Shown: piece after piece, positions 15,676 through 29,794 of the stretch | Numbering within the stretch: position 1 is the first letter of the stretch | Layout: each line of letters starts with the position of its first letter | Assembly (NCBI GenBank): GCA_036844705.1 | Contig: DAIUFH010000001.1 | Span: 24,456 to 88,455 of the forward strand | DNA length: 64,000 nucleotides | Direction: 5' to 3' | From: Tissierella sp. | GTDB taxonomy: Bacteria > Bacillota > Clostridia > Tissierellales > Tissierellaceae | Notes under the pieces: generated by a model | What the model was told of the DNA's origin: nothing | Database searches by the model: none | Seen by the model: only the letters and a program-made list of their open reading frames with translations | Program-made: the position numbers and the translations under genes

Positions 15676-17487
15676 ATGTCAAAGAACAAGTATGCAACAA
15701 AGTTTTGGGCTTTTATTTTGGCAATTTTAATAATTGCTTCAATGGTTGCAGGTTGTACTCAAAAGACAGAAACTATCAATCCAGAAGAAAGCCAGAATCC
15801 TGTTTCAGAGGAAATTAAAGAACCAGAAGAAACTACTATTCCTACAAAAATGGAAGGTGATGAATTTGACAACGGCGCAATTGGACAACATGGTGGCGTA
15901 TCAAGTAGTTCAGAGTATTCATCACAAGTTGGGATAGATATACTTAAGGCAGGTGGTAATGCAGTAGATGCTGCAGTTGCAACAGCATTTGCAATAGGTG
16001 TAACTGAACCTAATTTAAGTGGTGTTGGTGGCTGTGGTATGATGAACATTTACTTAAAGGATACAAATGAATACGTAATGCTGGAATATATGGAAACTGT
16101 TCCTATGAATGTAACTGCTGGTTGGTTCAATAAAGATACTGATTCTAGCACTGCAAAAAATGCCGCTGTTCCGTCTCAAGTTAATGGATTGCTTACAGCT
16201 TTAGAGAAATATGGAACTATGACAAGAGAAGAAGTAATGGCTCCAGCAATTAAGCTAGCAAGAGAAGGATTTGAAATGGATGAAAGACTTGCTGAAGCTG
16301 TAGCAAATAGCTATGACGTATTTTCGGAACCTGAAAATGAATACTTATTAGAATTATATACAAACGATGGAATACCTTATTCTAATGGAGACCTTTTCAA
16401 GAATGAAGACCTCGCTAATACATTACAAGCTATAGCTGATGGTGGCATAGACGAATTTTATAGAGGAGAATTAGCTAAAACTATAGTAGAAGGTCTGCAG
16501 GCAGGCGGAAGTTTAATAACAATGGAAGATATGGATAGTTATGAGACTGCCATACGTGAACCTTTAAGAACAATATACCATGGATATGAGGTTATAGTCC
16601 CACCTCCTCCATCAAATGGTGGAGACTGGCTACTAGAAATATTGAATATTTTAGAAAACTATGATTTAAAAGCAATGGGGCACAATACTCCCGAATATTT
16701 ATTCACATTAAATGAAGCTTCACGTTTAGGTCTTGCGGATTCTTATGCATTTATTGGAGATCCGGCTTACTATAATTTACCGATGAAAGAAATGACATCT
16801 AAAGAATATGCAGCAGAGCGTGTTAAACAAATGCCTACAGATAAAGCTTTAGAGGATTCACCTGCGGGGGATTTACCTGTAGAAAAACTTGATCCAACAG
16901 GTGCTGAAAGTCAACATACAAGTCATATTGCTGTAATAGATGAATATGGGAATATTGTATCTACAACTAATACATTGGGTTTAGGCTGGGGGTGTAAGTT
17001 TGCAGTTCCCGGTACAGGATTTTTCTATAACAGCCATATTTCAAATCTAGAACATGATCCAGCTAAAGCAGATAGTCCAGACTATGTAATGCCTGGAAAA
17101 CGTGTACGTAGTACAATAACACCATCTTTAGTGCTAAAGGATGGGGAACCAATAATGGCGATAGGGTCACCTGGCTCTCTGGCTATTCCTCCAGCTATTG
17201 CAATAGTAATAAATAATGTATTGTTGTTTGATATGAATATTCAAGAAGCAATCAATGCGCCTCGTGCTATGGCTATAGATCGATTTGGTCCTACAATGAC
17301 TATTGAAGCAGGTCGATTTGATGAAACTACAGTTAAAGCATTAGAGGATTATGGTTATGAAATGAAAGTAGTTAAAGACTATGATTCAGCAGTAGGTGGA
17401 ATTGCAGCTATTTATCTAGATAAAGAAGCAGGATTCTTCTATGCAGGAGCTGATCCTCGTAGAAATTATAAAGCATTAGCATATTAG
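15676..17487 (+). CDS. ggt: Gamma-glutamyltransferase / CapD-family enzyme, lipoprotein
   Basis: Lipobox 'MVAGC'. Autoprocessing nucleophile region 'QHTSHIAVID'. 'GSPGS' and 'GGIAAIY...GADPRR' are GGT hallmarks. Confidence 0.9.
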   Translation: MSKNKYATKFWAFILAILIIASMVAGCTQKTETINPEESQNPVSEEIKEPEETTIPTKMEGDEFDNGAIGQHGGVSSSSEYSSQVGIDILKAGGNAVDAAVATAFAIGVTEPNLSGVGGCGMMNIYLKDTNEYVMLEYMETVPMNVTAGWFNKDTDSSTAKNAAVPSQVNGLLTALEKYGTMTREEVMAPAIKLAREGFEMDERLAEAVANSYDVFSEPENEYLLELYTNDGIPYSNGDLFKNEDLANTLQAIADGGIDEFYRGELAKTIVEGLQAGGSLITMEDMDSYETAIREPLRTIYHGYEVIVPPPPSNGGDWLLEILNILENYDLKAMGHNTPEYLFTLNEASRLGLADSYAFIGDPAYYNLPMKEMTSKEYAAERVKQMPTDKALEDSPAGDLPVEKLDPTGAESQHTSHIAVIDEYGNIVSTTNTLGLGWGCKFAVPGTGFFYNSHISNLEHDPAKADSPDYVMPGKRVRSTITPSLVLKDGEPIMAIGSPGSLAIPPAIAIVINNVLLFDMNIQEAINAPRAMAIDRFGPTMTIEAGRFDETTVKALEDYGYEMKVVKDYDSAVGGIAAIYLDKEAGFFYAGADPRRNYKALAY

Positions 17488-17503
17488 ATTAGTTATTTTA
17501 ATG

Positions 17504-17520
17504 GGGGATAAGCTCCCCCT
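17504..17520 (+). other. GC-rich intercistronic stem-loop with no U-tract
   Basis: GGGGGA-TAAGC-TCCCCC, 17 nt after the ggt stop. Confidence 0.4.
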
Positions 17521-17540
17521 ATAAAGATAGAGGTGATTTT

Positions 17541-28446: not shown

Positions 28447-28486
28447 ACAACTTATGCAATTGTTATCATTGCAAAGGAGGGCTCAT

Positions 28487-29140
28487 ATGGATAGAGAAAT
28501 TACAATATTATCAATAGATGATGATAAAGAAATTCTATATGCGTTAAAAGCTATCTTTGATTTTCAAGGATGGAAGTCAATTTTGGCATTGGATGTAGAA
28601 AGTGGTTTAAAAGCTTTTTTGGACAATAAACCAGATATAATACTCATTGATTATCACTTACCACGTATTAACGGAATAGATGGAGTATATATGTTAAGAC
28701 AATTATCACCAACAATACCTATAATAGTATTTACTATTGATGAAAGCCAAGAGGTGGCTAATCGTTTTCTTGAGGTAGGTGCAAGTGATTTTGCTCTGAA
28801 ACCTATAAAAACTCCTGATCTAATTTCAAGAATCAATCTACATATTCAACTTATGAATAGAGACCCCGATAATAGTTTTTATACATTTAATATTCTTAAT
28901 AGTGAAAAAGAAATAGAGACTAGTCTGCCAAAAGGAATTAGTTTCAATACATTGGATTTAATAAAGCAGAACATGGACAATAAAGAATTTTATACAGTTG
29001 AATCCATTGTAAAATCAACTGGTTTAGCATATCAAACTGTGTATAGATATCTACAATATATGGAATCTGCTGAAATAATTGAAGTACATATTACATATGG
29101 GAAAGTAGGGAGGCCTAAAAACTCATATCGTTTGCTATAG
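28487..29140 (+). CDS. Response regulator (REC + C-terminal winged-helix/HTH, CitB/DcuR-like architecture)
   Basis: 'ILSIDDDK', 'IILIDYHLPRINGIDG', 'FTID', 'LKPI', and a C-terminal 'STGLAYQTVYRYLQYMESAEII'. ATG at 28487 behind AAGGAGG. Confidence 0.85.
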   Translation: MDREITILSIDDDKEILYALKAIFDFQGWKSILALDVESGLKAFLDNKPDIILIDYHLPRINGIDGVYMLRQLSPTIPIIVFTIDESQEVANRFLEVGASDFALKPIKTPDLISRINLHIQLMNRDPDNSFYTFNILNSEKEIETSLPKGISFNTLDLIKQNMDNKEFYTVESIVKSTGLAYQTVYRYLQYMESAEIIEVHITYGKVGRPKNSYRLL

Positions 29141-29152
29141 GAGGAATTGATT

Positions 29153-29794
29153 ATGAATGAGATTTTTGTTGTATTTCCACATTTGGTAATAGATAAGCCC
29201 CGTGATATTTGGGGCGTTAAGTTCGAATGTGAATTGGATAAAAAATACATCACTATAAAATGTGAATATTCCAATGATGAAGAGGAAAAAATAATTAATC
29301 GGAGGATGAAAGTTATACGCAGTCATCTTATGCTTGCATGCTATTTAGTTGGTAAGGACCCTTCTCTTTTTTGTAAAATGCAAAAAGGCAGACAAGAAAA
29401 ATATGATGATTTAGTAAATCTAAGATTATCTATCGAATCATTGATTGATATTTTGCCAAAAAATATAGAAGATAGCGCAATAACCGTTTATTGGTTCTCC
29501 AGATATTTGGAAACAAATAAAGATGAAAGAAATCAAATTATATTTCTTTATAATGCATTAGGTACTTTGCCTGGTGGATATGAGCAAATTTTATCTTTAT
29601 CAGATAGTATAGATGACAAACAAATATTACAGGCTTTGCTCACTAGGATTGATGATTTACATAAAAAAGATAATGAAGATGAAACTTACATGGAAAAGAC
29701 TTCACCATTCACAATTAAAGAAATAAAGAAATTGGAATTATGTTATATAAGGTGTCTATTAAATACCTTTCCAGAAATAAAACGACCTAATTAA
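29153..29794 (+). CDS. Hypothetical protein, 213 aa, no recognisable domain
   Basis: AGGAGG RBS with the ATG 12 nt after the RR stop. Last gene before the terminator. Confidence 0.55.
   Translation: MNEIFVVFPHLVIDKPRDIWGVKFECELDKKYITIKCEYSNDEEEKIINRRMKVIRSHLMLACYLVGKDPSLFCKMQKGRQEKYDDLVNLRLSIESLIDILPKNIEDSAITVYWFSRYLETNKDERNQIIFLYNALGTLPGGYEQILSLSDSIDDKQILQALLTRIDDLHKKDNEDETYMEKTSPFTIKEIKKLELCYIRCLLNTFPEIKRPN

Follow-up and report, generated by a model that had tools for sequence, protein, structure and literature searches.

A PgsBCW-type poly-gamma-glutamate synthase recurrently linked to a cassette of surface hydrolases, DctM-like permeases and membrane microproteins in anaerobic bacteria

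We analysed a stretch of 64,000 nucleotides from Tissierella sp. (contig DAIUFH010000001.1, positions 24,456 to 88,455 of the forward strand; hereafter the window), in which an unbroken run of plus-strand open reading frames (ORFs), the PGA block (Table 1), encodes a synthase of poly-gamma-glutamate (PGA) of the PgsB-PgsC-PgsW type. Alongside the synthase stand a two-component system, an orphan protein and a cassette that comprises a gamma-glutamyltransferase-family lipoprotein (GGT), a DUF6305 lipoprotein, DctM-like permeases, membrane peptides of ~50 amino acids (aa) and membrane-anchored M14 zinc hydrolases. Catalytic motifs are intact, topology signals point outward, and the linkage of cassette and synthase recurs across phyla. 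We consider it probable, though far from assured, that this locus makes, trims and re-imports PGA. A preliminary description of the block, made from the letters of the window, had not recognised its architecture as a described system. Our literature search returned no paper on the cassette or on its combination with pgsBCW either, and in no paper found is there a description of the cassette, of the pairing of its carrier with microprotein and M14 enzyme, of the DUF6305 component or of the variant GGT pocket.

A profile search with the family of M14a, the first anchored hydrolase of the block, yielded 80 metagenome loci, onto which the window proteins were mapped. Across these loci the core cassette runs GGT, DUF6305, DctM-like permease, ~50-aa peptide and anchored M14, often with a small second M14 after it. 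In the window, an additional permease-peptide-M14 module follows GGT, and the small M14 forms the end of the second anchored M14 as a fusion. Synteny over the whole cluster is seen in Lutispora saccharofermentans and in a Tissierellaceae metagenome-assembled genome (L001 and L002). There, identity to the window copies is 74-85% for GGT, permease 2 and the M14 proteins, 59-75% for PgsB, PgsC, PgsW, kinase and regulator, about 55% for permease 1 and 36-38% for the orphan. The position of pgsB-pgsC-pgsW varies: the three genes may lie 3' or 5' of the cassette, diverge from it (L009), or be split off by the kinase-regulator pair or by insertion sequence (IS) elements. The gene set stays constant in such rearranged loci, be the synthase divergent, the permease single or the kinase-regulator pair placed centrally. 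A survey of this kind had been called for in the preliminary description, and the linkage of M14, DctM-like permease and pgsB that it had pointed out does recur, whole or rearranged, in many lineages. As a side observation, one locus (L100) has two IS transposase genes of the rve type (7167-8108 and 13220-14161) around the part that holds its synthase and kinase-regulator genes, with an Asp/Glu-racemase-like gene near.

Linkage also appears when one starts from the synthase. Among PgsW homologues chosen regardless of neighbourhood (40-47% identity), the cassette is adjacent in five out of five, and in Cetobacterium somerae (Fusobacteriota; L099) it adjoins pgsBCW, the genes there being annotated by PGAP as ggt, 'DUF6305 family protein', 'TRAP transporter large permease subunit', a 47-aa hypothetical protein, 'succinylglutamate desuccinylase', pgsB, pgsC and pgsW. 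In the reverse survey, from the cassette, 13 loci have 4 kb or more on either side, and nine of them carry the synthase. In the other four the cassette stands alone amid housekeeping genes (ScpAB, LytB, P-type ATPase, CorA), and their flanks hold no glutamate-catabolic genes, only unrelated housekeeping genes. Hence the cassette is self-contained and the synthase is accompanied by it in all sampled loci. Since it can stand alone in unrelated contexts, the cassette looks more like a unit of uptake or catabolism in its own right than like a subunit of the synthase. The preliminary description had proposed one self-contained circuit: synthesis, hydrolysis, transport and sensing are linked as it said, whereas the indivisible unit does not stand, and two modules take its place. 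Cassettes were found in Clostridia, Tissierellia, Sphaerochaetaceae and Fusobacteriota. Lutispora saccharofermentans and Paratissierella segnis are carriers in culture.

The synthase genes represent a PgsA-less type that is already named (NCBIfam TIGR04332; PGAP symbol pgsW). PgsB carries the P-loop GTRGKS and shares 30% identity with CapB of Bacillus anthracis over 392 aa; PgsC matches PF14102 (E 2e-29) and is 35% identical to CapC. Through these homologues the block resembles capBCADE of B. anthracis and pgsBCAE plus pgdS and ggt of B. subtilis. As in those systems, a gene for a GGT-family enzyme accompanies the synthase (compare capD), and a synthase goes together with putative cutters of its own polymer; capD is co-transcribed with capBCA, and GGT and PgdS of B. 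subtilis degrade that organism's own PGA. Unlike the Bacillus systems, the cluster is without CapA/PgsA, CapE/PgsE and NlpC/P60 and has PgsW as third synthase protein, and it adds AstE/AspA-type M14 hydrolases, two permeases, two microproteins, the DUF6305 lipoprotein and a two-component system of its own. The absence of PgsA/CapA and PgsE/CapE had been noticed before and is borne out by tblastn of CapA and CapE from B. anthracis (pXO2-type plasmid) over the 64-kb window, with a best E >1. PgdS had likewise been called absent, which holds within the cluster, where no NlpC/P60 match to Pfam occurs among the 14 products; PgdS outside the cluster was not searched for.

PgsW occupies the third position, that of PgsA/CapA in Bacillus. 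Its transmembrane (TM) helices span residues 10-28 and 330-355 with a soluble domain between, which would face outward given the basic N-terminal stretch (K3, R6, K10). The family has at least 1386 homologues. The AlphaFold2 (AF2) model is confident (pLDDT 91.3, pTM 0.88) and found no relative among PDB folds (best E 1e-3, TM-score <0.25), with no metallophosphatase-like match, which rules out a PgsA-like metallophosphatase in disguise. The third gene, by its match to TIGR04332, places the block with the three-gene pgsB-pgsC-pgsW clusters of the Fusobacterium type, among which that of C. somerae adjoins the same cassette. What sets the block apart from the named clusters is that only the synthase genes are named in them; cassette and regulators were found in no paper. 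Candela and colleagues are reported to have defined the third synthase gene in 2009. Fusobacterium nucleatum has been proven by experiment to make PGA (Candela 2009, cited in PMC3815933).

Profile searches against Pfam and NCBIfam confirm the gene-family calls of the preliminary description, PgsB, PgsC, PgsW and GGT each passing a curated equivalog model, and its suggestion that all hydrolases act outside the membrane agrees with the export signals read from the sequence: lipoboxes V-A-G-C27 on GGT and L-T-G-C24 on the DUF6305 protein, N-terminal signal anchors on both M14 proteins, and likewise such signals on orthologues that are split into separate proteins. The window GGT has its nucleophile at Thr415, which aligns with Thr391 of E. 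coli GGT and with the small-chain starts in PDB entries, and it has no lid loop. In a PDB sequence search it is nearer to E. coli/Bacillus GGT than to CapD (285 bits for E. coli GGT, 133+46 bits for CapD). We aligned the pockets of 58 GGTs that belong to cassettes, the window's and those of related loci, with those of E. coli GGT and CapD, looking at R114, N411, Q430 and D433 of the E. coli enzyme, which we take to be the residues holding the free alpha-carboxylate and alpha-amino groups of the gamma-glutamyl donor. The canonical donor pocket is not present in the window GGT (R114M, N411G, Q430H, D433N). At these four positions the window and the two-permease loci read M/G/H/N, the single-permease loci (n=26) R, N, one of E, Q, H or T, and D, and B. 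anthracis CapD R/S/Q/N. The M-G-H-N pocket is kept in 17 loci, and all of them with a contig long enough to judge are of the two-permease type. 'GGT/CapD-family', as the enzyme had been called, is right as to family, and a standard GGT it is not, with four gamma-glutamyl pocket residues replaced.

With CapD the window GGT has in common the Asn at 433, a small residue at 411 and the missing lid loop, while R114 is lost. The donor is probably an internal, N-acylated gamma-glutamyl residue, because the Asp and Arg that grip the free alpha-amino and alpha-carboxylate groups are gone and D433N is as in CapD. On the simplest reading of the variant pocket, the donor would need no free amino group, which fits action on internal residues of the polymer. 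Some other arrangements were seen around GGT. In L068, L073, L076 and L093 there is a GGT-family gene with a CapD-like pocket, R-S-E-N, and in L076 and L093 it adjoins a second GGT that retains R114 and D433 (R-N-T-D); the pairs suggest that exo-acting GGT and CapD-like roles may be co-encoded in the system. In the Sphaerochaetaceae-type two-permease loci L013 and L037, which are without pgsBCW, a protein of 403-456 aa with no Pfam family is encoded directly 5' of the GGT gene (5066-6277 and 5232-6602, respectively) and may be an additional lineage-specific component.

Three M14 domains are encoded in the block, all retaining the HxxE...H zinc ligands, NRxxPG and the C-terminal catalytic Glu. 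M14a, whose family counts 967 homologues, has these as H88-x-x-E91, R184-N-x-N-R188, H222 and E287, in columns invariant among homologues. It scores 23.4 bits against Pfam AstE_AspA_cat (PF24827), just under the cutoff of 25, and a profile of its family (28 homologues) matched only AstE/AspA-type entries of the PDB, with a best E of 6e-7. The N-terminal domain of the double M14 protein (residues ~30-380) is a paralogue of M14a (43% identity, E 5e-91), and domains of this N type carry an insertion of about 50 residues. The C-terminal domain (residues ~440-655) is a classical AstE/AspA catalytic domain at 69.7 bits, matching 2qj8, 3cdx and DoeB 6twl in the PDB (E 1e-10 to 3e-8); its counterpart in most other loci is a separate lipoprotein gene, and stand-alone orthologues bear lipoboxes or anchors. 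The domains share HxxE...H, NRxFPG and the C-terminal catalytic Glu with M14 enzymes of the AstE/AspA type (succinylglutamate desuccinylase, aspartoacylase, DoeB). Unlike those cytosolic enzymes they are predicted to be extracytoplasmic and membrane-tethered. PghP of phages is a carboxypeptidase-A-related zinc hydrolase of PGA (PMC4497714). Like it, the M14 proteins of the cluster would be carboxypeptidase-fold zinc enzymes acting on PGA, without a sequence match: searches gave no Pfam PGA-hydrolase match (E <=0.01) and no match (E <=0.1) to the PHROG phage families, among which PghP would fall.

The likeness to TRAP transporters (DctP-DctQ-DctM) is clearest for permease 2, which matches DctM nearly full length (403 of 413 profile positions) and has a small membrane partner gene next to it. 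Unlike in TRAP systems, the partner is a ~50-aa 2-TM peptide instead of a 4-TM DctQ, no DctQ, DctP or TAXI match (Pfam, NCBIfam) occurs in the cluster, and a membrane-anchored M14 follows instead: an M14 gene lies within 450 nt 3' of the permease in 86 of 88 cases, and an ORF for the peptide was detected 3' of 78 of the 88 permease genes of related loci with a hidden Markov model of the peptide family. Permease 1 has no Pfam match above the cutoff, so that its DctM assignment rests on paralogy to permease 2 (29% identity, E 1e-39). Searched alone against PDB sequences, permease 2 found no match; a joint profile of the permease family found one, the M part of the TRAP DctMQ structure 9pym (E 1e-4). 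The permeases would work as importers rather than exporters. Both micro-ORFs are real genes: they belong to a conserved 2-TM family with the C-terminal motif LVxxPLxLRxLxIK in the family alignment, and their position between permease and M14 gene is conserved. In L001, L002 and L015, permease 2 is 82-91% and microprotein 1 70-80% identical to the window copies. Public gene callers missed microprotein 2 on identical contigs (L003-L008), and the ~50-aa membrane peptide family is probably under-annotated in general.

The lipoprotein between the two permease modules had been described as being of unknown fold. It is a lipoprotein, and it is the Pfam family DUF6305 (>1000 homologues): after its lipobox come a Pro/Glu/Ser/Thr-rich linker and a 150-aa domain that the AF2 model (pLDDT 86.7 overall, about 90 or above in the domain) predicts to be flavodoxin-like, a three-layer alpha/beta fold with an invariant polar cluster. 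Foldseek against the PDB gave no specific structural relative, only generic matches to flavodoxin-like, SGNH, dehydroquinase and amidotransferase-like folds (E about 5e-4, TM-score <=0.48). Among the invariant residues are R150/R175/R176, H169, E198 and S133, the last in a strand-turn-helix with the sequence 'GASSKG'. H169 and E198 lie at the ends of the two strands after S133, which recalls Ser-His-Glu hydrolases on flavodoxin-like or amidotransferase-like folds, such as the S51 cyanophycinases. DUF6305 might therefore be a fourth hydrolase, not a binding protein; it is a single 150-aa domain and not a two-lobed binding protein. In another locus (L101) a DUF6305 domain sits within a 588-aa protein (16739-18505), with a 647-aa protein without Pfam family upstream (14653-16596).

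The kinase gene is co-located with the cassette in many loci, including two (L048, L052) without pgsBC, and profile searches recognised no extracytoplasmic sensor domain in its product. The helix-turn-helix (HTH) region of the regulator scores 26.8 bits against HTH_64, near the cutoff of 27, with weak DpiA and DcuR matches; compared with the CitAB and DcuSR systems, the regulator is thus a borderline case and the kinase is without a detectable PAS/PDC sensor. The last gene encodes an orphan that belongs to no Pfam, NCBIfam or PHROG family. An exhaustive search of 1.84 billion proteins gave only 23 cluster representatives and no functional clue; its copies are 36-62% identical in L001, L002 and L015.

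All ORFs of the preliminary description were found on the plus strand where it had placed them. The same-strand run is as described, and the count of 14 genes plus two micro-ORFs was too high: 12 ordinary genes and two of ~50 codons make 14. With maximal ORFs the junctions range from -71 nt (overlap of kinase and regulator) to +53 nt. The starts that public gene callers assign in identical metagenome contigs (24391 for PgsB, 25511 for PgsC, 27091 for the kinase and 28487 for the regulator) give a range from -8 to about +59 nt, the upper end becoming about +126 nt with 21019 as the start of permease 2. The pgsB start at 24391 is one base away from the M14 stop, with GGTGGA 6 nt upstream of that start. 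The block had been said to be bracketed by two terminators, and both are indeed stable hairpins with a U-tract. The upstream one was picked up by the consensus scan on the minus strand; it ends the selD-selA-selB-response regulator genes and forms the 5' limit of the block. The hairpin of the downstream one (29836-29855; -12.2 kcal/mol, z -3.4) was detected by the consensus scan too. Inside the block the sole terminator-like site that is not trivially short, at 24340-24357, is weak (-7.9 kcal/mol) and lies within coding sequence. The short junctions and bracketing terminators make one transcript across the block plausible. A single transcript would not be general across loci, because elsewhere the cassette is divergent from the synthase or separated from it. 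The sequence of the window itself recurs in fermentation and bioreactor metagenomes.

From these parts we propose the following scheme. PgsB would ligate glutamate with ATP, PgsC and the bitopic PgsW forming the membrane part of a PgsA-independent synthase. At the outer face, the GGT-family lipoprotein would cut or transfer within the PGA chain, and the tethered M14 enzymes would release glutamate from its C-terminal end. We propose this site of M14 action because the C-terminal unit of PGA is chemically an N-acyl-glutamate, like N-succinyl-glutamate, the compound that AstE hydrolyses. The DctM-like permease and 2-TM microprotein beside each tethered M14 would take up the product, DUF6305 would be a further binding or hydrolytic component, and control of expression would fall to the membrane-embedded kinase and its CitB/DpiA-type regulator. 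Elements that we infer are the action of GGT and M14 enzymes on PGA, the end-specificity of these enzymes, uptake, glutamate as the solute, one transcript and the signal that is sensed. The scheme is analogous to cyanophycin metabolism (CphA with CphB/CphE) and to abgABT, an N-acyl-glutamate hydrolase with an IT-superfamily carrier, in that an amino-acid polymer or N-acyl-glutamate is hydrolysed and the product imported or re-used; the analogy involves no sequence relationship.

Several points weigh against this scheme. The cassette occurs by itself, so PGA from the same cell is not its obligatory substrate. The permeases are remote relatives of DctM, and the N-type M14 domains only marginal members of the AstE/AspA group. 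Action on internal residues does not account for the loss of R114 in GGT, and the true substrate of the variant enzyme could differ, since the Arg that binds the alpha-carboxylate is lost although this carboxylate is present on each PGA residue. Promoter-like sites are no commoner in the block than expected (95 observed, 86 ± 11 in shuffled sequence), which leaves room for internal promoters. Finally, one operon that both makes a polymer and breaks it down would seem a futile arrangement, unless the two activities are separated in time or the breakdown is trimming only.

Other explanations can be set against the same observations. The cassette might scavenge foreign gamma-glutamyl compounds (PGA of neighbours, glutathione, gamma-glutamyl peptides, folyl-polyglutamates or peptidoglycan fragments), so that synthase and cassette act on different molecules and are adjacent through a common response to glutamate supply. 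The four well-flanked lone cassettes point this way, as do the two loci with a kinase-regulator pair and no synthase, the fully canonical GGT pocket of single-permease loci (the type that acts on free gamma-glutamyl donors), and the CitB/DpiA-type HTH, typical of carboxylate-uptake regulons. We nevertheless hold scavenging to be rather unlikely, as the cassette adjoins every one of the neighbourhood-blind PgsW homologues and that of Cetobacterium despite rearrangements, a linkage that usually means a common pathway; in the window a single base separates the M14 stop from pgsB, and in genomes with seemingly lone cassettes pgsBCW could sit elsewhere. Conversely, the cassette could belong to the production machinery and replace the functions of PgsA and PgsE, permease and microprotein exporting or threading the polymer or supplying substrate, GGT anchoring it to the wall as CapD does, and the M14 enzymes setting length or releasing the chain. 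PgsA and PgsE are missing indeed, GGT has the CapD-type D433N and no lid loop, the cassette is found at each PgsW locus sampled, and some loci have the extra CapD-like (R-S-E-N) GGT copies. Such a role is unlikely in our judgement: the cassette exists without a synthase nearby, three separate exo-type carboxypeptidase-like domains exceed the need of chain release, and carriers of the DctM/IT superfamily work on small solutes by an elevator mechanism, none being known to transport a polymer. Clusters of the three genes pgsB-pgsC-pgsW are reported to be the minimal set in Gram-negatives.

It is also conceivable that the product is a short or modified gamma-glutamyl oligomer (for example amidated or attached) that serves as osmolyte, signal or wall decoration, with the variant GGT and paired modules processing short or modified products. 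The pocket has lost both holders of free alpha-amino and alpha-carboxylate groups (R114M, D433N), and the variant is strictly tied to the two-permease architecture, hinting at a different or second substrate. Against this, the models of PGA synthesis that PgsB and PgsC pass are of equivalog level, and no amidotransferase-like or other modifying enzyme is found among the profile matches of the cluster, and we regard oligomers as very improbable. A more specific form of the make, trim and re-import scheme is rather doubtful in its entirety. In it the cassette would be a coupled hydrolysis-uptake machine of a new kind, in which the microprotein, as a minimal DctQ, stabilises the DctM-like elevator carrier and the tethered M14 replaces the soluble binding protein, clipping the C-terminal glutamate and handing it to the carrier. 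The two modules would serve different products, e.g. D- versus L-glutamate, or monomer versus dipeptide; the M-G-H-N GGT would be endo-acting and CapD-like, having co-evolved with the second module, and genomes with the cassette only would scavenge the PGA of their neighbours in anaerobic communities.

PGA biology rests almost wholly on Bacillus pgsBCAE and capBCADE, and the locus type described here brings a different third synthase subunit in anaerobes of at least three phyla (Clostridia and Tissierellia, Sphaerochaetaceae, Fusobacteriota). If true, the proposed function would imply a new class of PGA-degrading enzymes, with which biotechnology could control the size of the polymer, and a subfamily of GGT whose donor pocket has been re-designed. 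In that case the carrier would be TRAP-like, partnered by a microprotein and independent of a classical binding protein, and PGA would serve fermenting communities as an extracellular store of glutamate, shared or private. DUF6305 also gains a context, as does the family of ~50-aa membrane peptides, which often escapes gene callers. The logic of making, trimming and re-using PGA is one that specialists would broadly expect; the system is widespread, coherent and testable.

Table 1. Coordinates of the PGA block, its genes and adjacent features in the window.
Feature	Position	Strand	Assignment and remarks
PGA block	15676-29794	+	unbroken ORF run
Upstream terminator hairpin	15365-15403	+	folding free energy -13.6 kcal/mol, z -3.9; flanking A- and U-tracts, bidirectional type
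Lipoprotein GGT-family enzyme, 603 aa	15676-17487	+	PF01019 E 1e-136; TIGR00066 404 bits (cutoff 358)
Permease 1, 427 aa, about 12 TM	17541-18824	+	divergent DctM-like/IT-superfamily paralogue of permease 2
Microprotein 1, 50 aa, 2-TM hairpin	18837-18989	+	C-terminal LVSIPLILRTLMIK
M14a, signal-anchored AstE/AspA-like zinc hydrolase, 386 aa	19003-20163 (gene callers: 19015)	+	
DUF6305 lipoprotein, 236 aa	20182-20892	+	PF19823 E 8e-49
Permease 2, DctM-like, 447 aa	20917-22260 (alternative start 21019)	+	PF06808 DctM 47.3 bits (cutoff 23.8)
Microprotein 2, 50 aa, GTG start, 2-TM	22264-22416	+	C-terminal LVLVPLILRLLLIK
Double M14 protein, signal-anchored, 655 aa	22422-24389	+	AstE_AspA_cat 69.7 bits (cutoff 25), 2 stretches
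PgsB, Mur-ligase-type PGA synthase subunit	24373-25518 (likely ATG 24391)	+	TIGR04012 332 bits (cutoff 222.7)
PgsC, small polytopic membrane subunit	25502-25945 (likely start 25511, overlaps pgsB end)	+	TIGR04011 108.7 bits (cutoff 96.45)
PgsW-type 'poly-gamma-glutamate system protein', 356 aa	25961-27031	+	TIGR04332 338 bits (cutoff 100)
Sensor histidine kinase	27028-28446 (likely start 27091)	+	HisKA and HATPase_c, about 5 TM
Response regulator	28376-29140 (likely start 28487)	+	Response_reg 74 bits; DpiA/CitB-like HTH
Cytoplasmic orphan protein, 215 aa	29147-29794	+	very small family
Downstream rho-independent terminator	29836-29862	+	8-bp stem, 5 G-C pairs, then U-tract
selD	10312-11280		upstream of PGA block
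selA	11296-12717		upstream of PGA block
selB	12717-14627		upstream of PGA block
Orphan OmpR-type response regulator	14636-15337		3' of selB
tRNA-Sec	29951-30047		just downstream of PGA block; own promoter-like site TTGACT-17-TAAAAT (29904-29932)

With sel genes upstream and tRNA-Sec downstream, the PGA cluster splits selB from selC in this genome. An island inserted at tRNA-Sec was considered and is unsupported: the tRNA lies downstream in this genome only, none being found near the related loci checked, there is no integrase among the annotated genes in or next to the block, and the G+C of the block (0.29-0.36) overlaps that of the rest of the window. A 143-codon ORF at 30015-30446, which begins inside tRNA-Sec, is probably not a real gene, or at least not in its 5' end; the only ORF that public gene callers place there has 61 aa and lies in its 3' part. 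Further on, at 30663-36599, a PucR-family regulator, an amidohydrolase/dihydroorotase-like enzyme, a sodium:solute symporter, a PyrK-like Fe-S subunit and a dihydroorotate (DHO)-dehydrogenase-like protein are encoded, which together resemble a regulated cluster for the catabolism or salvage of a cyclic amide of the pyrimidine or hydantoin type.

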